From NCBI GenBank assembly GCA_964402695.1, contig CAYODK010000006.1:2125-66124 (forward strand): a DNA stretch of 64,000 nt. The letters run 5' to 3'. Origin of the DNA: an uncultured Verrucomicrobiota bacterium (GTDB lineage Bacteria; Verrucomicrobiota; Kiritimatiellia; PWTM01). A program made the translations under genes and the position numbers. Positions 37,060 to 62,789 of this stretch are shown piece after piece (the stretch's first letter is position 1; each line of letters opens with the position of its first letter). The notes below the pieces were generated by a model. The model searched no databases. It saw nothing but the letters and a program-made list of their open reading frames with translations, and was not told the origin of the DNA.

Positions 37060-37093
37060 CGGATCCGGGCGTCGGGCCGGGTCGGAGCAGGGC

Positions 37094-44326: not shown

Positions 44327-44412
44327 CACGCAGGTCGGCGGCGAGAGGACGGCGCGGGGCGAAGCAACCGGACGGGAGGAGGTCGGAAAGAGGACGACTC
44401 GGGGGCTCCTGG

Positions 44413-44441
44413 TTGACGCAGGGCAGGCGGCTCGCTATCGT
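44413..44441 (+). promoter_or_regulatory. Candidate sigma70-like promoter (TTGACG-17 nt-TATCGT)
   Basis: Hexamers with 17-nt spacing about 30 nt upstream of the 44471 start, at a divergent intergenic region. Confidence 0.3.
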
Positions 44442-44470
44442 CAGCTTGGTATCTTGCGGAGGCTCCAGCC

Positions 44471-45127: not shown

Positions 45128-45164
45128 AGCCGCGGCGCGCCCGGCACGGACCGGGGCGTCGGAC

Positions 45165-45902: not shown

Positions 45903-45914
45903 GGAAGGACTACG

Positions 45915-47384
45915 ATGCCGGACATGAGAAAGAGGATGCTCGCCGCCGCGCTCGCGATCGCCGCGGCGCTGCCCGCCGGGGCGCAGGCCGCGGACGACTT
46001 CTACAAGGCGCGGCTCCAGGAAGGGCGGATCGCCTACGAGACGGGGAACGCGGCGGAGGCCGCGGACCTCCTCCGGATAGGCTGCTTCGGCCTGATGGAC
46101 CACCCCGCGCTTCTCTCGGAGGGGCTCGCGTGGCTCGCGCTCGCGCAGGTGAAGGCGGGGCGCGCGGCCGACGTGGACGGGACGGTGCGGCGCTTCCTCG
46201 AGGTTGAGAAGCGGTTCGGGGTGTGGGCGAAGGCGGCCGTGTCGGACGGCGCGCGGAAGGAGTTCGAGGCGCTCCTCGCGCGGCGGCTGCCGCCCGAGGC
46301 GCTCGCCTCGGTGCCGGCGCTCGCGGGGCTCGTGGAGACCGACGAGCAGAAGATCGCGAAGCTCGCGCCGCGGGAGCGGCGGCGGGCGCTCGAGGCGAAG
46401 GCGGCCGCGGAGCCGGCCGAGAAGAAGTGGGTGCTCGCCCTCGCGCGGCTCGCGGCCGAGGCGGGGGAGCCGAAGGAGACGATCCGCCAGGCCGGGAAGG
46501 CGATCGAGCTCGACCCGCAGGACCTCGAGGCGCGGCGCCTCAGGGCCGCGGCGCTCATGGCGCGGAAGAGCTGGGCCGAGGCGCTCGCCGACCTCGACGC
46601 GCTGCCGCCCGCGCTCCTCGCGTCGCAGCCCGCGCTCAGGGCCGACCGGTTCGTCTGCCTCGCGGCGGGGAAGCAGTGGGACCTCGCGCGCGAAGCGGCG
46701 GCGGGGCTGCCGGAGGACCAGCTCGCGCGGGCGGACGTCGCCGCGGCGATGAGGAAGGTGCCGGCGGCGCCGCAGGCGCCCGCGGCGGAGGAGGCAGCGG
46801 GCGCGACGGGAGCGCAGGGGGCGCCCGCGGCGGCGCCTGCGGTGGCGGAAGGGGCCCGGGCCGCGACGGTCGAGAGCGTTCCGGCCGCGCGGGCCGAGGC
46901 CGCTGCGGCACCGCCCGCGACGCCGCCGGCGGCCCCTCCGGGAAGCCGGACGGCAGCTGTGCCGGGCGCGGCGGCGCCGGCGGCGGGCGCCGGGGGCCCG
47001 GGGGCTCCGCAGGCGGCGGCCTCGATCGACGCGCTCAAGGTCCAGATTCGCGACGCGCTGAAGGCGGGGGCTCCCGACAAGGCGAAGGGGATCGCGATGG
47101 GAGCCGTCGCGGCGCGCCCGGACGACCGGGAGGCCCGCAAGCTCCTCCTCGAGGCGGCCTGCATGTCGCGCGACTGGAAGACGGTGGCCGCGCAGGCGCG
47201 GCTCCTCGCGCCGTTCCGCGACGGCGAGGAGCCGTCGATGTTCTACGGCGCCGTCGGGCTCTACGAGACGGGGGCCGTCGAGGAGGCCCGGCCGCTCATG
47301 CAGCGGGCGCGTCCCCGCGTCGCGCAGACGCCGTTCGTGAACTACTACGCCGATCGTCTGCTCCGCGACGGGACGCCGCAGTGA
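45915..47384 (+). CDS. Secreted TPR-like repeat protein
   Basis: Signal peptide, Ala-rich helical repeats, a low-complexity AP-rich middle. Confidence 0.45.
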   Translation: MPDMRKRMLAAALAIAAALPAGAQAADDFYKARLQEGRIAYETGNAAEAADLLRIGCFGLMDHPALLSEGLAWLALAQVKAGRAADVDGTVRRFLEVEKRFGVWAKAAVSDGARKEFEALLARRLPPEALASVPALAGLVETDEQKIAKLAPRERRRALEAKAAAEPAEKKWVLALARLAAEAGEPKETIRQAGKAIELDPQDLEARRLRAAALMARKSWAEALADLDALPPALLASQPALRADRFVCLAAGKQWDLAREAAAGLPEDQLARADVAAAMRKVPAAPQAPAAEEAAGATGAQGAPAAAPAVAEGARAATVESVPAARAEAAAAPPATPPAAPPGSRTAAVPGAAAPAAGAGGPGAPQAAASIDALKVQIRDALKAGAPDKAKGIAMGAVAARPDDREARKLLLEAACMSRDWKTVAAQARLLAPFRDGEEPSMFYGAVGLYETGAVEEARPLMQRARPRVAQTPFVNYYADRLLRDGTPQ

Positions 47385-47516
47385 CGGTCGCGGGCTCGCC
47401 GGCAGCAGCGTCTGCCGCGGCGGTCGCAGCGGCGGCAACGCGCGGAACTGTCGGTTCGGAAACGTTGACCGGGCGCTGTCGCGCCGACTAAAGTCCGGGA
47501 AAAGGGAGGAATCCGT

Positions 47517-48464
47517 ATGCAGTCCTGGAGGCGGTTCGGATCCCGGTGGCCGGTGCGCCGGGGCGCCGGCGCCCTGGTCGTGGCGGCTCTCCTCGTCGCG
47601 CTCGCCCCGGGGTGCGTGACGACGAACGAGGTCGCGAAGTCGTACCCGAACGACGAGCGGTACACGAAGCTCCTCGACGACGTCGCGAAGATCTACGAGA
47701 CGCGGGACACCTCGAAGATCATGGACCTCTACGTCCAGGACACGTACTCCCTCTCGTTCGACCAGACGACGGCGTTCGACTCCGGCGCGGCCGACCACAA
47801 GGGGACGATTGCGCGGCTCTTCGACGGCGTCGAGGACCTGAAGGTGGAGTGGAGCCCCGACGTGACCGTCGACAAGACTTCGGAGAAGGTCTGGACGACG
47901 CGCCACTTCAAGGCGACCGCGCTGATGGCGAACGGCGAGAAGCGCGAGATCTCGGGCTGGCACAGCGCCATCTGGGTGGAGCGCGACGGCAAGGACCTGA
48001 TCGAGTACGAGCACTTCCGCGCCGACACGCGGATCACCGCGATGCCGCCTCCGCCCCCGCCGCCGGCCGGGCCGCCGCCGCTGACGCCGGAGGCGATCGA
48101 GGCGCAGGCGCGCGACTCGATCCGCGACATCTTCTTCGACTACGACAAGTGGGACATCCGCGACTCCGAGCTCCCGAGCATCAACGTCGTCCTCGACTAC
48201 CTGAAGAAGTACCCGACGACGGAGATCACGATCGAGGGGCACTGCGACGAGCGCGGCTCGACCCGCTACAACATCCGCCTCGGCCAGAAGCGCGCCGACG
48301 AGACGAAGAAGTGGCTCGTCGCGCAGGGCATCGCGCCGGAGCGGCTCCGGACGATCTCCTTCGGCAAGAGCCGGCCGTTCGAGGTCGGGCGCTCGGAAGA
48401 CGCCTGGCAGTCGAACCGCCGCTCCCACTTCGTCGTCACCAAGGGCCCGACCTTCGACAAGTAG
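47517..48464 (+). CDS. OmpA-family lipoprotein with an N-terminal NTF2-like (SnoaL/DUF4440) domain
   Basis: Lipobox LAPGC, poly-Pro linker, C-terminal OmpA_C (GHCDERGSTRYNIRLGQKRA). Track start 47518 is inconsistent with its own length; the ATG is at 47517. Confidence 0.8.
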   Translation: MQSWRRFGSRWPVRRGAGALVVAALLVALAPGCVTTNEVAKSYPNDERYTKLLDDVAKIYETRDTSKIMDLYVQDTYSLSFDQTTAFDSGAADHKGTIARLFDGVEDLKVEWSPDVTVDKTSEKVWTTRHFKATALMANGEKREISGWHSAIWVERDGKDLIEYEHFRADTRITAMPPPPPPPAGPPPLTPEAIEAQARDSIRDIFFDYDKWDIRDSELPSINVVLDYLKKYPTTEITIEGHCDERGSTRYNIRLGQKRADETKKWLVAQGIAPERLRTISFGKSRPFEVGRSEDAWQSNRRSHFVVTKGPTFDK

Positions 48465-48490
48465 CCCTCCCGACCCCCGTGGGGAGAAAA

Positions 48491-48526
48491 GGGCCGGCGT
48501 TCCGCCGGCCCTTTTCTCCGCGGGCC
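48491..48526 (+). terminator. Rho-independent terminator-like hairpin (gggccggcg-ttc-cgccggccc followed by ttttctcc)
   Basis: Perfect 9-bp GC stem plus a T-tract 27 nt after the stop. The outer arms extend to a 15-bp palindrome. Confidence 0.65.
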
Positions 48527-48671
48527 GGTCGGAGGCACCGGACCGCCGGCGACAGTCGTGCCTCGTTCGACGAAGACGGCACGAAATCCGGGGAATTCGC
48601 CTGCAGACAAAGCTGTTGGCCAGTCTTTCGTGGCGACCGCTTCGCGACAGGCGGTATCATCAGCGAACCCG

Positions 48672-50282
48672 ATGAGCGGGTTCAGTTCCATCCAGATAGA
48701 TCGTTTCGATCGGGCGCTGCGCGAGCTCGATCCGAGGGTAAAGGTCTGGGTGACTCGGGGCCTCGTCGTCGCCGGCGTGGGTCCTCTGGCCATCTACGCC
48801 TCCTGGTGGCTGGAGGGGGGACGGTTCCTCGCGCTGCCGTTGTTGCCGGCCTTCGTGCTTGCGGCCGCGTACCTCGCGTTCCAGGTCGTGGCAGCCTGGT
48901 ACGTGTATTGGCGGATCGAGATACCCGAGGATCGGGTTCCCCGCCCTGGCCTCACGGTGGACGTCTTCGTACCCGTCCTGGACGAGGATCCCCTCCTCGC
49001 CGGGCAGGCGCTTTCGGCGGTCCGGGCGTTGACGTACCCGCACCGGGCGTTCGTCCTGGACGATGGTCCGCGCCCCGAGATCCGAGCTCTCGCCCTCGAG
49101 TACGGGGCGACCTACCTCGTGAGGCCGGAGAGGCTCGACAACAAGGCCGGAAACGTGAATCACGCACTGGCGGCCTCGAGCGGCGAGTTCGTGGCGATCT
49201 TCGACGTGGACCATCTCCCGGAGCCGGGGTACCTGGACGCGGCCCTCGGGCACTTCGACGACGGCCGAGTCGGCTTCGTGCAGCTCATGGTCGGATACCG
49301 GAATCAGGCAGAGAGCTTCATCGCGCGCGCGGCGAGCGGTCAGGCGGACGACGTGTTCGGACCGACCTCCATGGGATTCCACGGCTGCGGCGCGGCGCTG
49401 GTCTGGGGCGCGCACACGGTATTCCGGCGCCAGGCGCTAGAATCCATCGGAGGGTACAGGCCCGGGCTCGCGGAAGACTTGAACACTTCACTCGCCCTCC
49501 ACGCCGCAGGGTGGCGGTCCGTGTACGTGCCGAGGCTCCTTGCCCGAGGCCTGGCTCCTGTCGACCTGCACGGGCACATGACGCAGCACCTGAAGTGGTC
49601 TCGCGGCGTGCTCGGGACGCTCTTGGGGATGGCGCCTGCGCAGTTGGCCCGCCTGACTCCGTCGCAGACCCTCGCCTATCTCGTGCGGATGACGTACTAC
49701 CTCGTCGGCCTCGTCTCCGTCGCTCACATGATTCTCCTGGCCTGGGCCCTCTTCAGTGACGCGGACGTGAATGAATACCTGTACCGGTGCCTGATGCTCG
49801 CCGGGACGCTCGTAGTCGTTCGCAAGGTCGTGGGAGCGATGTGGGAGCGCGATCCGCGTTCGGGTTGGCAGGTCACGGGAACGGCTCTCGCGGTCGTAGC
49901 GTGGCCCACCTACGTCGCGTCGCTCCTCGCGGCGCTCATCGGCGTCCGTTTCCGGCATCGACCGACACCGAAGCAGCGAGCGGGGGTACTTTGCCTTCCC
50001 GCTCTGCTCCCGCAGCTCGCCATGCTCTTGGCCTTGGTCGGAGGTCTCCTCGTCGCCGCCGGGCGCCACGGCCGTCCGTTCCCGGTCCTGGCGGGCGTCC
50101 TCGCCGCGATGACCATCGCAGGACACTGGGTGCTCGTGAGGGGGGGCCTGGACGACTGGAGGGCGAGGCGGGCGACGGCTCCTCCGCCCGGAATCGAACA
50201 GGACGCCTTCCGGGGGACGCGACCTTCTCCCGCGGTCCTGTCGGCGTCCGCGGCGCCGGGCGGCTCCTCCTGCGAGTCCTGA
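48672..50282 (+). CDS. Processive GT2 glycosyltransferase, cellulose-synthase-like (BcsA/PgaC-like catalytic core, no PilZ)
   Basis: DDG, DVDH (DxD) and QHLKWSRG (QxxRW) motifs, N- and C-terminal TM clusters. Confidence 0.75.
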   Translation: MSGFSSIQIDRFDRALRELDPRVKVWVTRGLVVAGVGPLAIYASWWLEGGRFLALPLLPAFVLAAAYLAFQVVAAWYVYWRIEIPEDRVPRPGLTVDVFVPVLDEDPLLAGQALSAVRALTYPHRAFVLDDGPRPEIRALALEYGATYLVRPERLDNKAGNVNHALAASSGEFVAIFDVDHLPEPGYLDAALGHFDDGRVGFVQLMVGYRNQAESFIARAASGQADDVFGPTSMGFHGCGAALVWGAHTVFRRQALESIGGYRPGLAEDLNTSLALHAAGWRSVYVPRLLARGLAPVDLHGHMTQHLKWSRGVLGTLLGMAPAQLARLTPSQTLAYLVRMTYYLVGLVSVAHMILLAWALFSDADVNEYLYRCLMLAGTLVVVRKVVGAMWERDPRSGWQVTGTALAVVAWPTYVASLLAALIGVRFRHRPTPKQRAGVLCLPALLPQLAMLLALVGGLLVAAGRHGRPFPVLAGVLAAMTIAGHWVLVRGGLDDWRARRATAPPPGIEQDAFRGTRPSPAVLSASAAPGGSSCES

Positions 50283-51661
50283 AGGTCGTCCACGACTCGC
50301 TGCCGTTCTCGGTCGGCGGGGTTGAGGTGTACGTCCAGCGCCTCTCCGAGGCGCTTGCGGACAGGGGAGTCGAAGTCGGCGTCTTCTCGGCGGTGGACTG
50401 TGCCGGAAGGCGTCCGTACGAGGCGGCGCTCGTCGAGGGGCGCGTGCCCGTGTACTCCGTGGCTCATCGTCTCGGCAGCCACGGGCAGGGCCTTGGGCAG
50501 GTCCTGCTCGACTCCAGCAGGTTCTACCTGGATCCCGCGGTCGACGCGGCATGCGCCGTGGTCGTGGAGACGTTTCGTCCGGATGTGATCCACATCCACC
50601 ACCTGGTGCATCTGTCGGGCTCTCTCATCGGGATGTTGAAGAGAATGGGGCTTCCGGTCGTCGTGACACTTCACGATTACTGGTACCTCTGCATCACGGG
50701 ACAGCTCCTGAATGACGGGGGCGCCCACTTCCCCGATCGGTGCGGAGCCCCCTGCATCGCATACGTCCTGCACAACCGCTACAAGGCTACGGGATGGCTC
50801 CGGTGGGGCCTTCGTCGCGCGATCGGCCTGGCACCGCTCGCCTTCGAGGGGCTTCACCGAAGACGCCGGGATCGCCTCCTGGCGGAGCTGAACTCGGCTG
50901 ACCGAGTCCTCGCCCCATCCCGGTTCATCGCCGAGGTGTACTGCGCGGCCGGACTCTCGGCTTCCCTGGTCTCCCATTCTCCCTACGGTGTTCCTTCCTC
51001 GTCGATCCCGAGGCGCGACGAGACCCGGACGGCAGGTGCGGGGCTTCGTGTGGGCTTCCTCGGGCGCATCGTCCCCGAGAAGGGACTTCACGTGCTTCTC
51101 GAGGCCTTCGACAGGCTCGACGACTCGTTCGAGCTGCACGTTCACGGGGTCGAATCGCGATCGTCGGGCTATGCCAGCCGCCTGTCGGGACGAATGAAGT
51201 CATCGAGGGTCCAGCGGCATGGACCCTACGATCACGAATGCGTCGGGGAGGTCTTGTCGGGCCTCGACGTCCTCGTGGTGCCCTCGGTGTGGTGGGAGAA
51301 CGCTCCCCTCGTGATTCTCGAGGCCTTCGCGGCGGGCGTCCCCGTCGTCGCTTCGAATCTGGGTGGGATGAGAGAGCTCGTCCGACATGGCGAGAACGGC
51401 CTCCTGTTCGAGGTGGGAGACTCCGACGCCCTCGCAGAGGCGCTTCTCCGGCTCAGGCACGAACCCGGGCTGCTCGCGTGCCTGCGGCGGGACCCGGTTC
51501 TGACGAGGAGCCTGGCCGAGAACGCTGACGAGCTGGAAGGGCTCTATTGCTCGCTCGTGGCGGAGCGGTCACCGGTCGAGGGCCGAGCCACGGGCGCCCC
51601 GAGGCTCGGGCTGCGAGAGAAGGGCACGAGATTCGGGCCGGCCGGCATCCGGCAGCCGTGA
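50279..51661 (+). CDS. GT-B glycosyltransferase (GT4), non-canonical start
   Basis: The conserved N-terminus (L)KVVHDSLPFSVGGVEVYV begins at a CTG overlapping the upstream TGA (CTGA). No in-frame ATG, GTG or TTG nearby. Confidence 0.6.
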   Translation: MKVVHDSLPFSVGGVEVYVQRLSEALADRGVEVGVFSAVDCAGRRPYEAALVEGRVPVYSVAHRLGSHGQGLGQVLLDSSRFYLDPAVDAACAVVVETFRPDVIHIHHLVHLSGSLIGMLKRMGLPVVVTLHDYWYLCITGQLLNDGGAHFPDRCGAPCIAYVLHNRYKATGWLRWGLRRAIGLAPLAFEGLHRRRRDRLLAELNSADRVLAPSRFIAEVYCAAGLSASLVSHSPYGVPSSSIPRRDETRTAGAGLRVGFLGRIVPEKGLHVLLEAFDRLDDSFELHVHGVESRSSGYASRLSGRMKSSRVQRHGPYDHECVGEVLSGLDVLVVPSVWWENAPLVILEAFAAGVPVVASNLGGMRELVRHGENGLLFEVGDSDALAEALLRLRHEPGLLACLRRDPVLTRSLAENADELEGLYCSLVAERSPVEGRATGAPRLGLREKGTRFGPAGIRQP

Positions 51662-53220
51662 GCTGCGAGCTGGGACAGGACTCGTCGGAGCTGGTCCGTG
51701 TATCGGGGTATCTCGGCGACGCGGGCGAGTCGTCGGCATCCGTCCTCGGCCCTCCCGTCGGCGAAGTCCATGCCCGCCAGGTCTTCGAGTGAGGGCGTGT
51801 GGTCCGGCAGGACTTCGATCATCTTCTCGAGGAGCGCCCGCTTCCGACCCTGGTCCATCGTCTCGGACGAGAGCGCGTGCCACGGAGCGGCGTACCGCGG
51901 ACGCAGCGCGAGGAGCGAATTCAGAACGCGGGTGGCGTCCTCGTGGCGGTCGCACCTGGCGTACGAATCGGCGAGCAGGAAAGCCGTCCACGCATCGCCT
52001 GGGTGAAGTGCCAGGACGCGCTCGTGGAACGCCGTACGGCCCTTCGGGTCCGCCGCGAGCTCGTTCCGGCGAGAAGCAGCTTCGTGGCGGAGGGCCAGCT
52101 CGTCGGCGTAGCCGGGGTCCGGCGAACGCGATCGTCCGCGCAGGAGCCCTGCCCGACCGAGGAACGCTACCGTGTCGCGGGCCGCGAGTTCGTGTGCAAA
52201 GGCGTTGGGGTGAAGGTCGGCCTCGGAGACGACGAGCACCGTGTTCTGTCCTTCGCGTTGGAGCGTCCCAGAGAGGTCAATCACCGGCAGGCGTAAGGAC
52301 TGAAGCGAGGCGACGAGCTGCCTGTAGGGCTTGTCGGCCTTGATGCCGAGTGCGCGCGTCTCAGCGCTCACGGGACCGTGCATGAGGTTGGGGAAGACGA
52401 CCGCTGCAAGGGGGACCCCTGCAGCCCGGCGAAACGATTCCATCTGCCGGAACGTCTCCTCCGCGACACGCCATTCGGCTGATCCGGGGCGATAGGCATT
52501 CTCGAAAGCCTCGAGAGCCGCGTCGATCCTCGAAGACTCGTCGGCGATTCTGGTGGCTGTCAGAGACCGGCCGAGACGGCCCGCGAGGGTGGGGGCCGCC
52601 TCGGCCCAGGCCTGGCCGACGCTCCACGGGTCCACGAGCGCGATGTCGTTCCAGAAGATCTGCCAGAGGACGAGGTCGGGCTTCAGGTCGGCTCCGTGGA
52701 CGAGAAGCTTGATGAGGTTGTCCGCGTGCCTGTGGCCGCAGACGCCGAGGTTGATGACCTCGGGTGTCAGGCCGTTCGGAAGCCGACCGTCGCCCAGAAG
52801 CGTCTCGAGACGGGAGGCCCACGTCTCCTCCATCGCCACGCCCTGGCCCCAGCTGAACGAATCGCCGACGACGACGATCCGGAAGGTCCCGGGCCTCCGC
52901 GAGATGGTGTACTCGGGGGTCCTGAAGCCGTTCGAGTTGTGAAGCGCACGCGCGTCGGGCTGCGAGCTGAACGGTATCGTCGTGGCCAGGAGGTCCGTCG
53001 GGGATGCCTCGAACGGGAAGTACCACGGCGTGGCCATGTACGCACTCGCGCCCGCGGGGCCGGTATCGGCCGACTCGGCAGGCCTCGGGAGGGAAGACAG
53101 TCGGGGCCTGTGGAAGGCCCGCAGGAACGCCTCGGCCGCGACCAGGGCAGCGACCGTCCCCAGCAGGATCGCCGCGAGCTTGAACACGGTTACCCGGCGT
53201 GGACGGGGGTAGCCGGTCAC
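51544..53220 (-). CDS. Membrane-anchored SGNH/GDSL hydrolase-fold protein with a C-terminal TPR-like domain
   Basis: IVVVGDSFSWGQG block I, N-terminal TM. Overlaps the 3' end of the convergent GT4 by about 118 bp. Confidence 0.55.
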   Translation of the reverse strand: MTGYPRPRRVTVFKLAAILLGTVAALVAAEAFLRAFHRPRLSSLPRPAESADTGPAGASAYMATPWYFPFEASPTDLLATTIPFSSQPDARALHNSNGFRTPEYTISRRPGTFRIVVVGDSFSWGQGVAMEETWASRLETLLGDGRLPNGLTPEVINLGVCGHRHADNLIKLLVHGADLKPDLVLWQIFWNDIALVDPWSVGQAWAEAAPTLAGRLGRSLTATRIADESSRIDAALEAFENAYRPGSAEWRVAEETFRQMESFRRAAGVPLAAVVFPNLMHGPVSAETRALGIKADKPYRQLVASLQSLRLPVIDLSGTLQREGQNTVLVVSEADLHPNAFAHELAARDTVAFLGRAGLLRGRSRSPDPGYADELALRHEAASRRNELAADPKGRTAFHERVLALHPGDAWTAFLLADSYARCDRHEDATRVLNSLLALRPRYAAPWHALSSETMDQGRKRALLEKMIEVLPDHTPSLEDLAGMDFADGRAEDGCRRLARVAEIPRYTDQLRRVLSQLAAHGCRMPAGPNLVPFSRSPSLGAPVARPSTGDRSATSEQ

Positions 53221-56200
53221 CGTCCGCTCCGGAGCCAGGCGGACCTAAGTCCGGCGAGGCGATGGACGCACCGCTTCAGGATGGGCGTTTCGAGAGCGTG
53301 GCGAATGGCGCGCTCGGAGGACGGAGCTGCCCTTCCGACTCGCGCCAGAAGGCGCTCTCCCAGGTAGGTTGCGGCCTCGAAGGACGGATGCCTCGGGAAG
53401 CGCCCGAGACCGCGCACCTCGACACACTCGACCGGGAAGAGGCTGACCCCGGCAACGGTTGCGGGCGGAGGTGCGAGAGGTCCTTGCCTCCGCCGGAAGA
53501 CGCCTCGGCGGGAGTCGTCGAGGACCTGCTGGAACAGCTTCACGTAAGCGTCGACCATGTTCTCGATCCGGAAGCTCCCGCTGAGAAGCCTCTCCTGTGC
53601 GCGCTGGGACATTCTGCTTCTCAGGTCGGCGTCGCCCGCGAGGCGCACGATCCGGTCGGCGAACTGGTCGATGTCCCCGACGGGAACGATGAAACCCTCC
53701 TCTCCGTCGCGGACGAGCTCGGGAATACCGCTCCGGATGGCCGAGACGACGGGTATGCAGCCCCGGCCCATGGCCTCCAGGAGGGCGTTCGGCAAACCCT
53801 CGAACGACGAGGTCATCAGGTACACGTCCTGGCTTTCGAGTACGCGGAGCGCATCTTCGTTCGACAGGACTCCGAGCATCCGAATGGCGCCGCGATCGGC
53901 GAGCTCTCGGGCAGCGCTGCGGAACGCGTCTTCGTCCGGCCCGGCTCCAATCACGGTCAGGACAGCGTCCACTCCCCGGTTCAGAACGGCGCGAACGATC
54001 TCCGGGAGGTCGAGGATGCGCTTCTGCCGGACGTTGAGGACGCCGTGATAGACGAGCCGGAGCTGTCCGCCCGCTTCGCGGGCGGGTTTCGGAGCTTCTC
54101 CGGGAAGGCAGATTCCGTACGGGATCGTGTGAAGACGCGCAGCGCACCCCGGGTCGATCCCCACGGCCTTCTCGGCGATCTCCTGACTCACGGCCACCAC
54201 CGCATCCCAGTACCTCCCTTGTCGGGCGAGGTGGTCGTAATGGAGGGGATCGTCCCCGTGGAGGATCCCCACTACCGAGACCCGTCGCGGCAATCGCGGG
54301 GCGACGCACGACTGCCGCCAGTCGTAGTTCGGAAGGTAGACGCACGGTGCGCTCTCCTCGAGGAGGCGCTGCATCGCGGCCCAGCGCTTCCCCCATCCGT
54401 CGGTCCGACCGACGGGCAGGTACCGGACAGGCAGATCCGGTGGAAGGGGCATGGGAGGGTCGGGAATCGAGATCAGGTCCGTCCGCTCCTCCGTGAGGAG
54501 GATCTCCGCCTCGGTCCCCTGTGCGCGAAGCCCTCGCACGAGATTCGCTGCGAAAACCGTCACCCCCGTGAGGGTCCAGTAGGGCAGCGCCACGACGACC
54601 CGAAAGTCACGGATCTCGGCGCGCCGGGCCGCCGTCACGGCGGCCTGCTGCACCTCCCGCGGCGTTGGGCTGCGCCGCATCTCGTCGAAGTCGATCCTGT
54701 CCCGGCGACTCGGGAAAGCGCCGAGCCCGGGGACGACGTGCGAGCACGGAATGGGGAAGATGCCGAGGCCGTCGATCTCCGGGGGGGGGGGAGAGATAGC
54801 TCCCGCAGCCCTGACGAAACGTCCCTCGCGAGCGTCTTCAGCGACCCGCTCGCACAGCTCGCCCCAGCGGCGGGACATCTCCTGGACGCTGTGCGGACCG
54901 CCGGCGACGATCTCGAAGGAGCGGCGGGCCATCCTCGACCGGAGGGCCGGATCGGAGGCGAGTTCCTGCAGCCGGCGCGCGAAATGGTCGAGGTCGCCGA
55001 TGGGTGCGGTGAAGCCGCTCTCACCGTCGCGAACGAGCTCCTGGAGCGCGCTTCGGGTCCGCGAGACGACGGGGACACAGCCCCGCCCCATCGCTTCGAG
55101 GAGAGCATTCGGCATTCCCTCGAACTCCGAGGTCATCAGGAAGGCGTCGTGCTCCTCGAGCATGCGCAGGACGCCTCGATTGGGGAGGACCCCCGCGAAC
55201 CGGACCCGTCCACGCTCCGCGTGGTGGTCCAGCAGGTCCCGCAGCTCGGGTTCCTGGCTTCCACCTCCCGCGAGGGTCAGCACGAACGGAACGCCAAGCG
55301 ACTCGAGACGGTCGAGAATCCCGACGAGGTCGAGGATCCGTTTCTGTCGCTGGTTCAGAAGGCCGTGGTAGACGATTCGGAGGGCGCCCCCGGGGTCCGT
55401 GGCGTGCTGCGGCAGGCTCTCCGGAACCTCGACGCCGATCGGGATCGTCAGGAGCCGAGGCCGGAAGGACGGGTCGATCGCCGCGGTCTGGTCCTCGACG
55501 GCACGGCTGACGGCGACGATGGCGTTCCAGCTTCGTCCGAGGCGTGCGACATGGTCGTAGTGCAGGGGGTCGTCGCTGTGGACGACGCCGGCGACGGCGA
55601 CACTCCCGCTGAGCAGGGGGGAGATGCAGGAGTGCCTCCAGTCCGCGTTCGGCACGTAAACGCAAGGCGAGCGCTCTTCCAGATAGCGAATCATGGCGCC
55701 CCAGTGCGCGCCCCAGCTCGCCTGGGGACTCACGGGAAGGTAGGAAACCGGGAGGTCGTCCGGGAGCGGGAGGCGTGGGTCCTCGACGCTCACGAGGTGC
55801 GTTCGCTCCTCCGTCAGCAGGAGCTCGGCGTCGAAGCCGATGCTCCGGAGGCCGCGGACGAGGTTCGCCGAGAAGATGTTGACTCCGTTCAGAGTCCAGT
55901 AGCTCGCAGCGACGACGACCCTTGGTCGCACGTTCTTCCTCCATGTCTCCCGAGTCAGATCGCTCGTCCGCGCTGGCCGGGAGTCCTTTCGCAATCCGAA
56001 ACGTCCCGCCCGGGTTCCGAGCGAGAGCGCATCCACGAAGAGCCTTGCGCATTCCGCAGCGCGGACTCGGATTTCGGAGTAGAAGAGAACGAGGTGGCCT
56101 GCCGCTACGAGGAGGTAGCTCGTGTCTCTCCAGGCGAGCGAGCCAAGGAGTACCAGCGACAGCCAGGCCTGGTAGAAGCCGGCCGGGAGCACGTAGGCCC

Positions 56201-57044
56201 CGTGCGAAGCCGGGGCCGGGTCTGGGCGCACGCCCCAGACTCTCCAGCGGACGGCGTCTACGCCCGCACTTACAGCAAGGGCTGCGAAAGGCGCGACACC
56301 TGGCGAACCCTGAGAGGCGAACCACGCGGCGAGGACGAGGGCTTCGGCCGGGAAGACGACGCGGTGGATGACTCGGCGAACTCGATCGGGCCGCTGTCCG
56401 GCAACGAAGGTCCGCACGCCGCCCGCCTTGTCCGCTTCCCGGTCCCAGAGCTGGTGGAGGAGGATGCCCCGGGTTCCAGTGAGGAAGGACCACGCGATTG
56501 CGAGTGCGGCCGGTACGCCGAGGCTGCCCTCGCCGAGAACCCACGACGCAGTCGCCGCCGGGAAGGTGTGGACGGCCAGCGAGTCCGCGAGTACCCCAAG
56601 GAGGGACCGTTCCTTCAGCCGGACGGGAGGGGCCGAATAGGCGCCCGCAAGGGCGAGATTCGCGATCACCAGCGCGACGCCCATGGACCCCGCGCCGGCC
56701 AGGAATACCGGCAGGACGCTCACCACCGCGAGGAACAGGAGGGCGCCGGCGACTGCTTCCCTGCGTACCGTCCGTATTCGGGTGGGCCGTCCGGCTCGCC
56801 GATCCGCATCCGAGTCGAAGAAGTCGTTCGCCAGATATCCGAAAGCGCCCAGCGCCGACGTCGAGATCAGGATCGCCAGAAGGCGGGGGCCCGAGGACGA
56901 AGACGGTGACCGGCAGACGAGCGCCTGCGCGTAGCCGACCGCGAGCGCCATCGGGACCTTCGACGAGAACCACTCGCCGGCCCGCACGCTCGCGACGACG
57001 GTCCGGACATCGAGAACGGCACGGCTGAGAGCACGTCGTTTCAC
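53217..57044 (-). CDS. Tri-domain fusion: UbiA-superfamily prenyltransferase-like membrane domain plus two tandem GT4 glycosyltransferase domains
   Basis: UbiA motifs NDFFDSDADRRAGRP and WDREADKAGGVRT in a roughly 330-aa TM domain. There are two roughly 400-aa GT-B repeats, each ending EGMPNALLEAMGRGC(V/I)PVVS. 1275 aa. Confidence 0.65.
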   Translation of the reverse strand: MKRRALSRAVLDVRTVVASVRAGEWFSSKVPMALAVGYAQALVCRSPSSSSGPRLLAILISTSALGAFGYLANDFFDSDADRRAGRPTRIRTVRREAVAGALLFLAVVSVLPVFLAGAGSMGVALVIANLALAGAYSAPPVRLKERSLLGVLADSLAVHTFPAATASWVLGEGSLGVPAALAIAWSFLTGTRGILLHQLWDREADKAGGVRTFVAGQRPDRVRRVIHRVVFPAEALVLAAWFASQGSPGVAPFAALAVSAGVDAVRWRVWGVRPDPAPASHGAYVLPAGFYQAWLSLVLLGSLAWRDTSYLLVAAGHLVLFYSEIRVRAAECARLFVDALSLGTRAGRFGLRKDSRPARTSDLTRETWRKNVRPRVVVAASYWTLNGVNIFSANLVRGLRSIGFDAELLLTEERTHLVSVEDPRLPLPDDLPVSYLPVSPQASWGAHWGAMIRYLEERSPCVYVPNADWRHSCISPLLSGSVAVAGVVHSDDPLHYDHVARLGRSWNAIVAVSRAVEDQTAAIDPSFRPRLLTIPIGVEVPESLPQHATDPGGALRIVYHGLLNQRQKRILDLVGILDRLESLGVPFVLTLAGGGSQEPELRDLLDHHAERGRVRFAGVLPNRGVLRMLEEHDAFLMTSEFEGMPNALLEAMGRGCVPVVSRTRSALQELVRDGESGFTAPIGDLDHFARRLQELASDPALRSRMARRSFEIVAGGPHSVQEMSRRWGELCERVAEDAREGRFVRAAGAISPPPPEIDGLGIFPIPCSHVVPGLGAFPSRRDRIDFDEMRRSPTPREVQQAAVTAARRAEIRDFRVVVALPYWTLTGVTVFAANLVRGLRAQGTEAEILLTEERTDLISIPDPPMPLPPDLPVRYLPVGRTDGWGKRWAAMQRLLEESAPCVYLPNYDWRQSCVAPRLPRRVSVVGILHGDDPLHYDHLARQGRYWDAVVAVSQEIAEKAVGIDPGCAARLHTIPYGICLPGEAPKPAREAGGQLRLVYHGVLNVRQKRILDLPEIVRAVLNRGVDAVLTVIGAGPDEDAFRSAARELADRGAIRMLGVLSNEDALRVLESQDVYLMTSSFEGLPNALLEAMGRGCIPVVSAIRSGIPELVRDGEEGFIVPVGDIDQFADRIVRLAGDADLRSRMSQRAQERLLSGSFRIENMVDAYVKLFQQVLDDSRRGVFRRRQGPLAPPPATVAGVSLFPVECVEVRGLGRFPRHPSFEAATYLGERLLARVGRAAPSSERAIRHALETPILKRCVHRLAGLRSAWLRSGR
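54781..54791. repeat. G11/C11 homopolymeric tract inside the UbiA-GT4-GT4 coding sequence
   Basis: 11 consecutive G on the + strand, encoding PPPP at the linker between the GT4 repeats. Confidence 0.9.
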
Positions 57045-58378
57045 GAAGGCGGGCCCGAACTGCTCCTTCGCCGAAAGCCGAGCCGCCCGAAGTACCGCCG
57101 CGCGTGTCCCGACAGGAGCGATCGGACCGGCGGGAGGTGGTCGAGCCAGGGAGGAGGAAGCCCGAGCGGGGAGCGGACGGTCCCGGGCGGCCGCCGGAAG
57201 GAACCCGTCGAAAGGTCGTGCCAGACCTGATCGAATAGCGCCGTGTAGGCGTCGACCATTCCATCGAGGTTGAATCTGTCGGCGACGGTGCGGTGAGCCG
57301 CCGCGCCCATCGCGGCTCGTCGAACCGGGTCGGACTGCAGGACTTCGAGCCGGGCAGCGAAGGTTCTCACGTCACCAACACGGACTCGGAAGCCGTTCTC
57401 GCCGTCGGCGACGAGCTCCGGGATGCCGCTTCTGATGTCGGAAACGACCGGCACGCAACCTCGGCTCATCGCCTCCAGGAGCGCGAGGGGCAGCCCTTCG
57501 AACTCGGACGCGAGGACGAAGGCGTCGGCCCGTTCGAGCTCGAGGAGGATGTCGTCGTTGGAGAGCGTGCCCAGGAGACTGGCCTGGCCACGACCGACGA
57601 GGTCTCCGAGGGCCCGTTCGAGATTCGTCCGATCCGCTCCGTTCCCCGCGATTCGCAGCTCGAAGGGGACGCCCTGGAGCGCCAGATGTCGAGCGATGGC
57701 GGCGACGTCGAGGACACGCTTCTGGTGCTGGACGATCCGGCCCGCGTAGACGATTCTGAGGGGGGCACCCGGGCGGGAGACGCGCTCGGGGAAGGCCTCC
57801 GGGCATGGAATCCCGTACGGGATCGTTCGCATCCGAGGGACCAGGCGGGGCGTCTGTTTCGCGATTGCCGCGGACACGGCGTCGCTGACCGCGACGATGC
57901 CGTTCCAGGAGGCGCCGAGTCTCGCAACGTGTTCGTAGTGGTCCGGGTCGTCGCTGTGGGCTATGCCGACGACGGCGACGGAATCCGGGAGGACCGGGCT
58001 GACCCCGGAATACGCGTAATCGTAGTTGGGGATGTAGACGCACGGCGAGAGCTCGGCAAGGTAGCGCCCGAGAGTGCTCCACCGCTCGTTCCATCGATGG
58101 TGAAGACGGACCGGGAGTCGATCGAAGCGGAGATCGGCAGGGAGGGGAATGGGGTTCGTCCGGCGTGTCGACGGCCTCGTGAACAACAGGCGGGCATCGA
58201 AACCGCGCGATCCCAGCGCACGCGCCATGTGGAACGAGAACGTGTCTACACCGCTCAGCTCCCCGGAAGTCAACCCGATCACGACCCGGTATTCCGGGCC
58301 GTCCTTACGGGCAGAGCCATTTCGCGGTTGGGCCGGTTCCGCGAATCGACGGTTCATGACGTCTGTCCCCATTATCAT
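57041..58378 (-). CDS. GT-B glycosyltransferase (GT4), third paralog of the tandem repeats in the upstream fusion
   Basis: Same subfamily signatures (EFEGLPLALLEAMSRGCVPVVSDIRSGIPELV). ATGA-coupled to the fusion gene. Confidence 0.8.
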   Translation of the reverse strand: MIMGTDVMNRRFAEPAQPRNGSARKDGPEYRVVIGLTSGELSGVDTFSFHMARALGSRGFDARLLFTRPSTRRTNPIPLPADLRFDRLPVRLHHRWNERWSTLGRYLAELSPCVYIPNYDYAYSGVSPVLPDSVAVVGIAHSDDPDHYEHVARLGASWNGIVAVSDAVSAAIAKQTPRLVPRMRTIPYGIPCPEAFPERVSRPGAPLRIVYAGRIVQHQKRVLDVAAIARHLALQGVPFELRIAGNGADRTNLERALGDLVGRGQASLLGTLSNDDILLELERADAFVLASEFEGLPLALLEAMSRGCVPVVSDIRSGIPELVADGENGFRVRVGDVRTFAARLEVLQSDPVRRAAMGAAAHRTVADRFNLDGMVDAYTALFDQVWHDLSTGSFRRPPGTVRSPLGLPPPWLDHLPPVRSLLSGHARRYFGRLGFRRRSSSGPPS

Positions 58379-58390
58379 ATCGCCTGCCGA

Positions 58391-61300
58391 ATGAAACGAG
58401 CGCTCTTGTTCGTGTTGACGCTTCTCTGCGGGGCGAACGTCGCAGGAGCACCGGCAGGCACCGTTCCGTCGGCGGAGTTTCTTCGCGAGTTGCAGAAACG
58501 ATCCTTCGCGACGTGGACCTCCAGGTCAGAGCAGGAAATCCTCGAACTGTACGACCCGGGCGCGGATGTCGTCCTCTACGGCCCGCAGCTTGCTCGTTTC
58601 GTCGGTGCGCAGGGGCACGTCTCCTTCCTGCTGAGCCTGGTGCGGGACTGGCAGTTCTGCGAGTTCGTCCCGACCGGAGAGCCTTTCGTCGTCGCGGGGC
58701 GCGATCTGGCCTCGACGGCCACAACCTGGAGGTTGGAAGGGGTCACGAGGGATGGGCGTCCGGTCACATACGAAGGACGATGGACGAATGTCTGGGTTCG
58801 GAAAGGCGGCCGCTGGCTGATCGCGCACGAGCACGTCTCTTTCACCAGCTTTCCTGCGGTAGCCTCCTCTGCCATTCAGGGGACTCCCGTGCCCCGCCTT
58901 CCCGGTCTCCCCGAGCCGTCCCGCCTTCCCCTCCTCGAGCAGGAAGGATCTCCGTCGTCGACGGGCCGGCTCTCGAGCGCGCCTCTGATCGGCCTGGTCC
59001 TTTCGGTAGTGGCGATACTGCTCTGCGGATGGGCCGTCATGGCCGTTCGGAAGCAGGCGCGTGGCTCGCTGCTCGGCATGGCTGCTGCGCGGTCCCGTGG
59101 GAGGCTCGTCGGGCTCCTCTTGCGGATTGGACTACGGGTCGAATCGGTGGACGGCCTCGGGCGGACGCCCCTGATGATGGCCGCGAAAGCCGGGAAGGTC
59201 GACATCTGCCAGAGACTGCTCGCAGCGGGCGCGAGGGTGGATGCGCAGGACGAGTACGGAGCGACAGCCTTGCACCATGCGGCGGTCGGCGGAGACCTCG
59301 CAACGGTCGCGCTACTCCTCGAGAGCGGGGCAGACCCCCTGACCGAGACGCCCATGGGAAGGACCGCTGCCGACATCGCGGCTCTTCTCCATCAGGAGCG
59401 CATCTCAGATCTGCTTGCGTCGGCCACAGCGGCGGCAGGAGGCTCTCAGCCCCGTCCGGCCCTGGATCGCCCGCGCAGTCCCGGGCCTCAGCGAATCCGC
59501 GGCGCCTCTTGTCCGCGCTGCTCGGAGTCGCACAGGCTCGTGCTGTCCAGAAGCTACCGTCGCTGGGAAGTCCTCGTTCGGCGCGTCCTGCCCCTCGAGT
59601 TCGTACGCTGTCCCTCCTGCCTGTGGAGAGGCGCCCTCTCGAAGCGGTCGTTCTCTCTCGAGAGCCCTCCGCCAGGGGGTGTCGAGAGCGTACCTTCGAG
59701 CGACGTCGCCCCCTCCGATCGGCCGGAGCCGATGCCGGCGCCGGCGCCGCGGCCTGCAGAGGGTGGCAAGCTCCATCCACGGATCGACGGGGTCTCTTGC
59801 CCGAAGTGCGGCGCCGCGGGTGGGCTCGTTCTCTCGAGAAGCAGACGTTCGTGGGAAAACGCCGTGCGCAGCCTCCTCCCCTTGCAGTTCGTTCGGTGCC
59901 ACCGCTGCCGCTGGCGTGGCCCTGTTCACATGCATCGTCGCGGCGTGTCAGCCCCCGCGAGCCTCGGCGAGTCCGCCACTCCGGGTGGCTCGCGGCCAGA
60001 ACGAACGTCGTGGCCGGGCAGCCTCATCGTCGTCCTCGTCGCGCTCGCCCTGGTGGACCTCTTTCTCCTGGTGCGCCTGTTCCCGCCCTTGACGACGGAC
60101 GAGGTCTACTTCAAGGGAACGGCGTATCACCTGGCGACCACCGGGCGATGGGCGAACCCGTTTGTGGGACTGGCCGGGAACGGACCGGGTGATGGGCTCG
60201 TCCCGTATCCGCCCCTGTTCATGGTCGCTCTTGCCGGATGGTTCAAATTGTTCGGCCTGGGAGGCTATCAGAACCATGCGTTCGTCCTCCTGCTTCACTG
60301 GATGACCGCTCTTCTCGCTGGCGTCCTGACGCTCCGGCTCGTGGAGACGCGTCGAGGTCTCTGGGCTTCGATGGCCGCGATCGGAGCCTTCTGCTATTAC
60401 CGGCTGGATCGGACCGACGTCCTCGCCGGCGTCCTCGTCCTTGCCAGCGTCCTCCTCCTGCTAGAGTCGCTCGATGGCTCGGCCGGGCACGGCTCGCGGG
60501 CACGGCCCGTGCTCCTGCTCGGGCTCCTCGCGACGTTTCTGGTCGGCCCCGCGGCGACGCTTCTCTATGGCGCGGTCCTGTCCGTCTTCGTGATCCGCAG
60601 CGGGCTAGCTTGGGTGAGCGTTCGATCGCTGCTGCTGCAGCTCGCCTCGTGTGCCCTCCTCGCTGTCGCGAGCTCGTGGGCGCTTTCTGCGGAGACATTC
60701 AGCACGCTCGCCCGGCAGATCCTTGGTGCCGTCGCCACGGGACTTCGTCATCCGTTCCGTCTGACCGGAGCCTTCTCCTGGTCGGACGCCGTGTTCGTGC
60801 CGTGGTTCGTCGCGCTCGGGATCGCGCTCCTCCTTTCCCGCAGAACGCCTGCGGGAGCAGACCGCTCCAGACGAGCCGTCGCTCTCGCCGAAGCGACGAT
60901 CTTCGGTGTGCTCGTCTGGCTCTTGTTGACCCCCAAGGCCGGCACCTATTTGCACCTGCTCTTACCCCTGGCGGTCGTCGCGGTCGTGGCGATCACAGCG
61001 GGGCTGTTCCCCCGGGCCAGGCTGGCGCCGGTGGCGATCGCTCTGGGATGCCTGCTGCCCGGCCTCCTGCTCGCACTGCTCACCCTTGCACGCGCGACGA
61101 CGATCGATGACAGGGAGCGCTACTCGAGTGCGGCGAAGGCGGTGGAGAAGTACGTGCCAGCGGGGGAGCTCGTTGCCGGCGACGGGTGCCTCTGGACGGT
61201 CTTCGCTGGACGAAACCCCTTCGTCGACGCGGGCTGGGCGCCTCACGCGGCAAGGGACGCCCGGTGGATCGTCTCGACGGGAATCGGGACGGGCCGGGCG

Positions 61301-61507
61301 GGCCTGAGCGTCGTCGAGGCGCGCCCGGGAGTTCTTCGTGGCGGGGAGGAGGTCGTTTTCGACGGGATACTCAGGGAGCCGCAGCGCATTTCCGGCATCC
61401 CTCTCGGCCGCAGCCGGCTCGGATACGGAATTCGGATCTACCGTTCGCCGGCGGCACCGGACCTGCAGCGCGGCTCGGCCGCTCGAGCCGAAGGAACCGT
61501 GCGATGA
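58391..61507 (+). CDS. Multi-domain membrane protein: NTF2-like (DUF4440) exported domain, TM, ankyrin repeats, two CxxC...CxxC zinc-ribbon-like repeats, C-terminal GT-C-like (ArnT/PMT-type) polytopic glycosyltransferase domain
   Basis: Signal peptide MKRALLFVLTLLCGANVAGA. ANK motifs GRTPLMMAAKAGKVDICQRLLAAGA and GATALHHAAVGGDLATVALLL. Duplicated CPRCSESHRLVLSRSYRRWE...CPSCLWRG and CPKCGAAGGLVLSRSRRSWE...CHRCRWRG. About 11 C-terminal TM helices with YFKGTAYHLATTGRWANPF. A single uninterrupted 1038-aa frame. Confidence 0.6.
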   Translation: MKRALLFVLTLLCGANVAGAPAGTVPSAEFLRELQKRSFATWTSRSEQEILELYDPGADVVLYGPQLARFVGAQGHVSFLLSLVRDWQFCEFVPTGEPFVVAGRDLASTATTWRLEGVTRDGRPVTYEGRWTNVWVRKGGRWLIAHEHVSFTSFPAVASSAIQGTPVPRLPGLPEPSRLPLLEQEGSPSSTGRLSSAPLIGLVLSVVAILLCGWAVMAVRKQARGSLLGMAAARSRGRLVGLLLRIGLRVESVDGLGRTPLMMAAKAGKVDICQRLLAAGARVDAQDEYGATALHHAAVGGDLATVALLLESGADPLTETPMGRTAADIAALLHQERISDLLASATAAAGGSQPRPALDRPRSPGPQRIRGASCPRCSESHRLVLSRSYRRWEVLVRRVLPLEFVRCPSCLWRGALSKRSFSLESPPPGGVESVPSSDVAPSDRPEPMPAPAPRPAEGGKLHPRIDGVSCPKCGAAGGLVLSRSRRSWENAVRSLLPLQFVRCHRCRWRGPVHMHRRGVSAPASLGESATPGGSRPERTSWPGSLIVVLVALALVDLFLLVRLFPPLTTDEVYFKGTAYHLATTGRWANPFVGLAGNGPGDGLVPYPPLFMVALAGWFKLFGLGGYQNHAFVLLLHWMTALLAGVLTLRLVETRRGLWASMAAIGAFCYYRLDRTDVLAGVLVLASVLLLLESLDGSAGHGSRARPVLLLGLLATFLVGPAATLLYGAVLSVFVIRSGLAWVSVRSLLLQLASCALLAVASSWALSAETFSTLARQILGAVATGLRHPFRLTGAFSWSDAVFVPWFVALGIALLLSRRTPAGADRSRRAVALAEATIFGVLVWLLLTPKAGTYLHLLLPLAVVAVVAITAGLFPRARLAPVAIALGCLLPGLLLALLTLARATTIDDRERYSSAAKAVEKYVPAGELVAGDGCLWTVFAGRNPFVDAGWAPHAARDARWIVSTGIGTGRAGLSVVEARPGVLRGGEEVVFDGILREPQRISGIPLGRSRLGYGIRIYRSPAAPDLQRGSAARAEGTVR

Positions 61508-62613
61508 GCGTCGCGCTCGCCGAGCTCGAGGAGAAGGCGGAGGGCCTCGTCTCTTACCTGGAGTCGAGGCTTCGGAAACAGGGTCGGTTCCGCACGCTTC
61601 GTCGGTTCCTCGGCGACGTGGGGAGCTACGCGAGGCCCACTGAGTACGACGGCTGGTACGAGTTCGGGGACTGCCCGTTTGCGGCGGCGAGCATCGCCAT
61701 CCACTTGCCCTTCCTCGGGGACGAGCGCCTCGCCGAACTCGGTCGACAGGTCTGCGAATACCTCGTCCCGGCGCTCGAAAATGGGATCGCGCGGTACGCG
61801 ATGCGGAGAGACGGGCCGATTCCATTCCCGGCAGACGTTGAGGACACGTGCCTCGTCGGCGCCGCGCTTCGGGCCAATGGCTTTCCGGTCGCCTTGAACG
61901 TGAACATGATCGCGGCCAACGTCGATTCGCGCGGACGCTTCTACACCTGGCTTGTGCCCCGGCTGCGCCATTTGCGCCATCCTCGCAACTTCCTCTGGCT
62001 CTGCCGGGACCAGAGGCGTTGCCGAGCGCTCATGAAGTCATACGGGACTTCGCGCGGCCGTCTCTCACAGATGGCGAACGAGTATCGAATCAGCCGCGAG
62101 CCGGCGGTCGCTGCGAATGTGCTTCTCTGTCCCGAGGTTCGCGGACGGTGTCCGGCGGCCGTCACGGCTCTGGTGGAGCAGGTCCTCGATGGAGACATGC
62201 CGCAGCAGTACTACGGAAGTCGGCTTGCTGCCTGGTTTCACCTGGCGCGGCTGTCTGCGGCTCGCGTCGAGCCGATCGGTGCCATCAAGGCCATCGCTGC
62301 GAAGGAGCTTGCGTTGGCCCAGAGGGAGGATGGCTCCTGGGGTACTCCGTTTCAAACGGCCATGGGTTTGCTGGCCTCGATGTACCTCGGTATCGGGAGC
62401 GCTGAGTCGCGCGAGCGAGGGGTCCGGAATCTCCTGAGACTCGAATGGCACGAGAAGGGCTGGGTCCCCTTTCCGTACTACAACGACCTCTACGACGTCT
62501 TCGAGGACGGAAGTGCCGAGCTCACAGCCGTTCTGGTCCTGGAAGCTCTCCTGCGCTGGCGATCGTCCCGTGGGGAACGAGGAGACCCCGTCGCGACCTT
62601 CACCGCTCTATAG
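61504..62613 (+). CDS. Hypothetical protein, possibly alpha/alpha-toroid (prenyltransferase/terpene-cyclase-like, QxxDGSW motif)
   Basis: ATGA-coupled to the upstream gene. QREDGSWGTPF resembles QW motifs. Weak. Confidence 0.35.
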   Translation: MSVALAELEEKAEGLVSYLESRLRKQGRFRTLRRFLGDVGSYARPTEYDGWYEFGDCPFAAASIAIHLPFLGDERLAELGRQVCEYLVPALENGIARYAMRRDGPIPFPADVEDTCLVGAALRANGFPVALNVNMIAANVDSRGRFYTWLVPRLRHLRHPRNFLWLCRDQRRCRALMKSYGTSRGRLSQMANEYRISREPAVAANVLLCPEVRGRCPAAVTALVEQVLDGDMPQQYYGSRLAAWFHLARLSAARVEPIGAIKAIAAKELALAQREDGSWGTPFQTAMGLLASMYLGIGSAESRERGVRNLLRLEWHEKGWVPFPYYNDLYDVFEDGSAELTAVLVLEALLRWRSSRGERGDPVATFTAL

Positions 62614-62789
62614 CGGTCCCGCTTGCGGCCGCGATCTCGCTCCGAGGGACACGGAGGCGACCGAGGCCACTGGAACGTCGGAGGCGGGAGCCGCCTGGCC
62701 GGCCTCTCCGGTGCTCCCGCCGAGCCAACCGACGGCGGGGGGCGAGGCACCGGCCCTGCTCGAGCGCACGGGATACGCGAAAAGAGGGC

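Follow-up and report, generated by a model that had tools for sequence, protein, structure and literature searches.

We analyzed a homopolymeric tract located within a glycosyltransferase gene on a stretch of 64,000 nucleotides from an uncultured bacterium (contig CAYODK010000006.1, positions 2,125 to 66,124; the whole stretch is referred to as the window). At positions 54781-54791, 11 uninterrupted G are present on the plus strand, with C and A as flanking bases, and they lie inside an open reading frame (ORF) of the minus strand (53217-57044) which starts with GTG, encodes a protein of 1275 amino acids (aa) and has GTGA overlaps at both of its operon junctions. On the coding strand, the tract is a C11 run that starts at nucleotide 2254 of the coding sequence, in codon phase 0, where TCT CCC CCC CCC CCG GAG encodes S751 P752 P753 P754 P755 E756; three CCC codons and the first two letters of a CCG codon (P752-P755) make up the homopolymer. 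It is the longest one of the window, followed by one G8 and five G7 runs, and no other homopolymer above 8 nucleotides (nt) was found in the 64 kb, despite the presence of about 20 glycosyltransferase genes; C runs on the plus strand reach a maximum of 6. A previous reading of this DNA, made from its letters and translations (the sequence-only reading), had described the run and its PPPP translation within a UbiA-GT4-GT4 fusion protein of 1275 aa, all of which is borne out by the sequence, the ORF and the Pfam matches, and had proposed that it acts as a phase switch. The functional switch so proposed is not supported by the analysis described below, which points, if not strongly, to a run produced by the choice of Pro codons in a conserved motif.

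The ORF is marked as coding by its GC content by codon position (0.73, 0.52, and 0.80), and three domains were recognized along the protein, all given here with their minus-strand coordinates. The first is a UbiA prenyltransferase-family domain (aa 41-270; 56235-56924), assigned to the superfamily based on a PF01040 match of 62.5 bits (cut-off 34.2) and on two Asp-rich motifs, N73 D74 D77 D81 and D201 D205, which are invariant in the alignment. It is followed by GT4 module 1 (aa 372-741; 54822-55931) and GT4 module 2 (aa 815-1181; 53502-54602), corresponding to two stretches with Glycos_transf_1 / Glyco_trans_1_4 matches (E = 1e-46 to 1e-47), in both of which the E-x7-E region is kept. An AlphaFold2 model covering aa 365-1275, built on an alignment of 68 sequences, shows the GT-B fold with a mean predicted local distance difference test score (pLDDT) of 91.6 and a predicted template modeling score (pTM) of 0.85, and the top Foldseek matches of each module were BshA, PimA, and MshA. 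Modules 1 and 2, each taken with its own terminal element (see below), are 53% identical over 404 aa. The possibility that the fusion is itself an artefact, in which a frameshift would have united two genes, was ruled out, since many homologs, aligned at 94-96% coverage, share the continuous architecture. The number of modules has been plastic in the evolution of this family: two, three, or four GT4 modules are found in homologs (P0003, P0007, and P0009), with or without UbiA, and some have GT2 instead.

The position of the prolines in the protein was assessed with two alignments, one of 20 full-length homologs and another of 68 family members. In both, the four prolines are contained in an element that closes module 1 (aa 742-794; 54663-54821), with the motif F.R..G....PP..I.G...FP......G.G.FPS. 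P754 is invariant and P753 is conserved in at least 90% of the sequences, and R745, P746, G759, F763, P764, G775, and F777 are likewise conserved. The proline stretch aligns without gaps, the PPPP of the window corresponding to x-PP-x in relatives, and PPPP is found also in one of them (P0021). The same motif, written here as F.RP.G.L..PP..V.G...FPV.L.H...G.G.FPS, recurs at the C-terminus, past GT4 module 2, in the terminal element of that module (aa 1182-1235; 53340-53501), where the prolines of APPPA are encoded as CCT CCG CCC. In the AlphaFold2 model, the module-1 element has a pLDDT of about 87-95, with at least 90 in its core (aa 742-784) and 90-94 in the blocks containing the tract residues. 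The only internal stretch of low confidence (pLDDT 59-70) is aa 795-814 (54603-54662), about 40 residues downstream of the prolines, and it is this stretch that represents the inter-module linker proper. As the module-2 motif sits at the C-terminus, with nothing beyond it to join, the label of inter-domain linker that the sequence-only reading had given to the PPPP is imprecise. Judging by alignments and model, it is the conserved, structured element at the end of the module that dictates the proline run, and not a loose linker. Throughout the family, an element of about 50 aa (F.RP.G.L..PP..V.G...FPV.L.H...G.G.FPS..D) is observed after every GT4 module, and no Pfam coverage was found for it. 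An earlier in-frame slippage from C8 to C11, by which PPP would have become PPPP, was considered as well and ruled out by the gap-free alignment of the motif.

The conservation of the prolines does not extend to their codons. Family-member DNA was taken from genome and metagenome contigs and about 40 homologous motif sites were read, in most of which the prolines are encoded by CCG or by a mixture of codons, the C runs being 2-5 nt long. Longer runs were found at two sites only, a C8 in the module 2 motif of L003 and a C9 in the module 1 motif of L011, roughly as often as random use of CCC would produce them. From these contigs, the homopolymer would not count as a conserved feature of the family, and the retention at the orthologous site that a contingency locus would be expected to show was not seen, which is a weak test since the homologs are distant (36-50% identity). 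The sequence-only reading had itself named a linker encoded by mixed codons in orthologs as an observation that would speak against it, and mixed codons are what was found, at the level of a family whose members are 36-50% identical. Moreover, given the PPPP and the Pro codon usage of the gene itself (CCC 34%), the probability of three CCC codons in these positions is p = 0.038.

Whether a run of this length departs from chance depends on the null model chosen. In dinucleotide-preserving shuffles, 0.23 G11/C11 runs per window were obtained, with at least one in 13 out of 100 shuffles, which is not significant. Within the genes of the window, in turn, sense-strand C runs number 153 for length 4, 35 for length 5, 5 for length 6, none for lengths 7 to 10, and one for length 11, the tract itself, and our own geometric extrapolation of these lengths gives an expectation of about 1e-3 C11 runs per window. 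Pairs of CCC followed by a Pro codon are under-represented in the same genes, with 10 seen (3 of them inside the tract) versus 24.6 expected. The other loci that were fetched and have a GC content of 62% or higher (257 kb in total) are free of G/C runs that reach 10 nt, and their sole 9-nt G/C run corresponds to the homologous proline motif of another family member. C11 is a genuine local outlier; the earlier claim that the run stands out holds against the run lengths of the window and the 257 kb of other loci, but not against the shuffles. By extrapolation, a genome of a few Mb would be expected to contain about 0.1 to 1 such run by chance. For each length, the window genes have roughly two sense-strand G runs for every C run. 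Four sense-strand G7 runs (17135, 38199, 40768, and 50140) are located in GT4, Wza, Wzc-like, and GT2 genes, respectively, whose ORFs are intact, and the G8 run (3417-3424) starts in the TAG stop codon of an outer membrane protein beta-barrel gene (2740-3417) and reaches the intergenic region 5' of a carbamoyltransferase-N gene. No relevant tandem repeats were found, and a G-quadruplex on the template strand was ruled out by inspection, since no more than three G3 tracts fit into G11 and some 26 nt separate it from the nearest other G run.

The consequences of a change in tract length were computed for both directions. A C10 (or C13) allele would continue as PPPRRSTAS... and reach a TGA 51 codons on, and a C12 (or C9) allele would end at a TGA 61 codons on (54607-54609, within wild-type codons 812-813); the shifted-frame peptide for +1 slippage on C11 reads PPPRRSTASASSPFR... 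A change in repeat number thus alters the reading frame, as in contingency loci, and the earlier statement that a one-base change truncates the protein after the first GT4 module was confirmed. The TGA of the C10 frame (54635-54637), which is also the one met after a ribosomal +1 shift, overlaps the in-frame GTG of codon 803 (54636-54638) in a GTGA (54635-54638) that falls inside the predicted flexible linker and represents a possible termination-reinitiation site. Since the operon junctions are also GTGA, termination-reinitiation giving a free second module is conceivable. A GGGAGG hexamer resembling a Shine-Dalgarno (SD) sequence is located 14 nt 5' of GTG803 (54653-54658), a long spacing, and SD-like motifs are present ahead of only about 11 of the 37 genes of the window. 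A stop at that offset always reads NTG-A, and a GTG or ATG would result by chance in an estimated 40-50% of cases. The ATG of Met789 (54678-54680), which had been suggested as an independent start, has no convincing ribosome-binding site upstream, and GTG803 would be the better restart candidate; past the C12 stop, the next in-frame start is GTG818 (54591-54593), in the first strand of module 2. Either frameshift would remove most of the conserved terminal element of module 1 and would probably affect, by polarity, the downstream GDSL/TPR gene, the start of which overlaps the stop of the fusion gene. The removal or uncoupling of the second module that had been envisaged was therefore retained only in part: truncation falls soon after module 1, but a conserved part of module 1 is lost with it, and the likely outcome would be loss of function instead of a clean uncoupling.

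Other alleles of the tract were searched for in several collections. No contig encoding the exact 1275-aa protein is on record, and in the 90% protein cluster, the protein is the single member. Among 5.8 billion proteins, the best-scoring homolog is 50% identical, with none above 57% among the matches listed, and neither high-identity truncated halves nor split-ORF relatives were found. The flanking DNA with a gap of 8-14 nt gave zero matches in 241 million metagenome records, and in species-representative genomes, only relatives with 36-47% identity were found (Gemmatimonadota, Massilia, Lysobacterales, and Azospirillum). The carbamoyltransferase and OmpA encoded in the window have relatives of 96-98% identity, which were used to walk toward the fusion gene; it is absent from the contigs of those relatives, which end before position 48516 or diverge at it.

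Taken together, we hold, with a little more than even confidence, that C11 is an incidental homopolymer arising from synonymous codon choice (three CCC and one CCG) on a conserved proline motif, since the motif needs prolines, the homologs use mixed codons, and the probability of three CCC codons given the prolines is 0.038. The motif is the PP(P) core of the structured element closing each GT4 module of a modular UbiA-GT4-GT4 enzyme of polysaccharide synthesis, and the gene of this enzyme lies in an accessory, strain-specific portion of a large island of exopolysaccharide or O-antigen-like type in an environmental bacterium. Owing to its length, the tract is presumably a hotspot for replication slippage by one unit in either direction, a property which the sequence-only reading had also assigned to it and which is expected from its length and composition, considering the C/G tracts above 8 of Bordetella (PMC1891110). 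As the run of CCC-C quadruplets lies on a polyproline stall site, it could be slippery in translation too. Frameshifted cells or products would then be commoner than at ordinary sites, the product being UbiA-GT4(1) without its conserved terminal element, the second module being lost or uncoupled, and the downstream gene probably being affected by polarity. The net effect would be mostly a loss-of-function load and not a designed switch. Several observations weigh against this incidental origin. The deficit of CCC-Pro pairs and the ending of the remaining C runs at 6 suggest that the genome seems to avoid such runs, and this apparent avoidance on the sense strand makes an unselected C11 more surprising. 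In addition, the tract is located in a glycosyltransferase gene for a surface polysaccharide, a classic class of contingency loci, and the GTGA of the C10 frame has the same form as the two natural junctions of the operon and is placed at the inter-module linker.

Alternatively, the tract could be an evolved contingency locus, retained since slipped-strand mispairing reversibly toggles the enzyme between a full-length three-domain form and a truncated or split one; with C10, UbiA-GT4(1) would be produced along with a second module re-initiated at codon 803, making the polysaccharide phase-variable, for instance, versus phage or grazers. We regard this explanation as unlikely, despite several points that fit with it. 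The length of the tract, a simple sequence repeat (SSR) within an ORF, is well above the instability thresholds for C/G runs of other high-GC bacteria, including the >8 of Bordetella (PMC1891110), it is a local outlier in a genome apparently avoiding C runs, both shifted frames end within 51-61 codons, and the C10 frame does so at a GTGA whose in-frame GTG is in the flexible linker, with GGGAGG 14 nt upstream. Moreover, in a surface-polysaccharide island, a glycosyltransferase gene is where such a tract could be expected, as poly-C tracts toggle futA/B/C and beta-(1,3)galT in Helicobacter pylori (PMC2806470). However, no homolog conserves the tract among the motif sites read, and multiple long SSRs, also typical of contingency loci, were not observed, since the 64 kb of the window, for all their roughly 20 glycosyltransferase genes, contain a solitary run above 8 nt. 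The tract is placed in the middle of the gene, in a conserved structured element, so that OFF variants would damage module 1 too, the GTGA coincidence has a chance prior estimated at about 0.4-0.5, the use of SD sequences in this organism is weak, and no tract-length variants or split-ORF relatives are on record in the collections searched. The more specific proposal of a domain-uncoupling phase switch in a free-living bacterium, by which C10 would split the synthase into two coupled polypeptides or leave an enzyme lacking GT4(2), with stochastic changes in the surface polysaccharide as a result, seems to us quite improbable.

It is also possible that G11 is an error in the consensus of a contig assembled from a metagenome, with the actual tract differing in length or being interrupted, given that the record of the source resembles that of an uncultured genome and that long homopolymers are error-prone on several sequencing platforms. 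This we consider very unlikely, as G11 keeps the frame open, the sequence downstream aligns residue for residue with the homologs and without a gap at the motif, the other G7 runs inside genes leave their ORFs intact, and only lengths of 8, 11, or 14 would fit the frame, with the alignment fitting four residues. Lastly, recoding at the level of expression, either by a +1 ribosomal slip on CCC-C at the PPPP stall or by a slip of the RNA polymerase, which would give a fixed truncated fraction with the gene unchanged, is likewise very unlikely in our view. In its favor, three consecutive CCC-C sites lie on the PPPP stall motif, CCC-C/U is +1 slippery for tRNAPro, elongation factor P (EF-P) is needed to keep frameshifts down on polyproline stretches (PMC7577736), and the +1 shift would enter the C10 frame and end at the GTGA, but slippage is suppressed by EF-P and by 1-methylguanosine at position 37 (m1G37) of the tRNA and is low when both are normal (PMC7577736), transcriptional slippage is documented chiefly on A/T runs (PMC3711429), and the slippery CCC-C is found here without a stable downstream structure (with z = +1.9, the RNA near the tract shows less structure than its shuffled versions), without an Rfam family match around the tract, and without conservation of the arrangement in homologs.

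The fusion gene is part of a polysaccharide island spanning the window, which contains an initiating PF00953 transferase, about 20 GT2/GT4 genes, and a Wzm/Wzt-like ABC transporter, in addition to Wza, Wzc-like, Wzy_C, CpsB/CapC-like, and OmpA genes; a Wzm/Wzt-like ABC transporter also adjoins the closest homolog. Upstream, a GT4 gene of 445 aa (57041-58378, minus strand) overlaps with its stop codon the start of the fusion gene in a GTGA, and downstream, a GDSL/SGNH hydrolase-TPR gene of 558 aa (51544-53220, minus strand) overlaps with its start codon the stop of the fusion gene, also in a GTGA; the latter gene is likely to be translationally coupled to it and exposed to polar effects. The backbone at 41947-48516 has 94.5% DNA identity to two ENA metagenome contigs (L091 and L092), the similarity stopping at 48516, about 50 nt past the stop codon of OmpA. 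L091 runs beyond this point with PqqD, radical-SAM, and ScmC genes in place of the segment from GT2 to UbiA-GT4-GT4, and the glycan diversity in this lineage visibly arises by gene-content replacement. The GC content at third codon positions (GC3) is bimodal, with 0.94-0.98 in backbone genes (742-3417, 32839-34599, 37839-38708, and 42773-48464) versus 0.73-0.89 in most glycosyltransferase genes, including the fusion gene, which suggests that native and acquired genes are mixed in a mosaic. Based on the end of the backbone similarity and the split in GC3, the segment that holds the fusion gene (48517-62700) is strain-specific and was probably acquired; its left edge was placed at 48516/48517, where the similarity to the relative ends, with no edge defined on the right.

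Further features were observed in the remaining parts of the window. The carbamoyltransferase gene at 32839-34599 is full length, and its product shares 96% identity with a protein whose name comes from a metagenome-assembled genome of Thermoanaerobaculia (Acidobacteriota); a second carbamoyltransferase gene (3729-5231, 500 aa) has a match to the N-terminal domain only. In relatives (L087-L090), PIN/MazE or HicA toxin-antitoxin genes are found between the carbamoyltransferase neighbor and Wza, and in the corresponding place of the window (34600-37840), there is a BBP2_2-like porin gene (35560-37059). A large plus-strand ORF (57293/58513-61507) with DUF4440 and ankyrin repeats, which are uncommon in free-living bacteria, lies divergently beside the GT4 operon.

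If the tract was nonetheless a true switch, slipped-strand contingency loci would extend beyond host-adapted pathogens and would diversify the surface polysaccharides of environmental bacteria like this one, with the unusual outcome that a multi-domain enzyme is split instead of silenced. As an incidental homopolymer, it would be a cautionary case, since a conserved polyproline motif in combination with a high GC content can yield long C runs by codon choice alone, and such runs can be expected to make sites prone to frameshifts and to give the appearance of pseudogenes in assemblies.

Phase-variable glycosyltransferase genes with poly-C/G tracts are well known, among them lgtA, lgtC, and lgtG of Neisseria and wlaN and cgtB of Campylobacter jejuni, and phase-variation tracts are usually near the 5' end of the gene. 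In form, the tract described here is of the same kind as the glycosyltransferase tracts of H. pylori, Neisseria, and Campylobacter, and it resembles the coding tracts of Bordetella; a full-text literature search found no published contingency locus of such kind in Acidobacteria. The futA, futB, futC, and beta-(1,3)galT genes of H. pylori have C12-C16 tracts (PMC2806470) versus C11 here, in-frame in a surface-glycan glycosyltransferase gene in both cases, and truncation follows a change of one unit in both. In such systems of host-adapted pathogens, the variation in tract length has been shown both within and between strains and many loci are present per genome, whereas here, there is one tract in 64 kb, known from one sequence and placed at codon 752 of 1275, in the middle of the gene and within a conserved motif, in an environmental bacterium. 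In Bordetella, which has a high GC content, C/G tracts above 8 exceed the Markov expectation and are nearly all polymorphic between species (Gogol et al. 2007, PMC1891110), and bapC, tcfA, and fhaB carry C/G runs of at least 9 in cell-envelope genes of a high-GC genome, as here in form (PMC1891110). Those tracts have been shown to be polymorphic between three species, across 90 strains, and even inside single cultures (PMC1891110), unlike the present one, for which one sequence is known. In Mycobacterium tuberculosis, the 7C tract of glpK undergoes a reversible coding frameshift, and hence acts as a switch in an organism that is not one of the classic mucosal pathogens (Vargas et al. 2023, PMC10334774), and a mycobacterial 7G tract frameshifts at 3e-8 per generation (PMC10334774). 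The tracts of that species are about 7 nt and their adaptive status was derived from homoplasy over 31,428 genomes (PMC10334774), whereas the present tract is longer and represented by one sequence. With regard to the enzyme itself, its tandem GT-B/GT4 modules in one polypeptide and the ABC transporter in the island can be likened, by description only, to WbdA-type polymerases. WbdA of Escherichia coli O9a is a polymerase with two GT4 domains that belongs to an ABC-transporter-dependent pathway. In contrast to WbdA-type enzymes, the protein described here has an N-terminal UbiA-family membrane domain and an element of about 50 aa after each of its modules.

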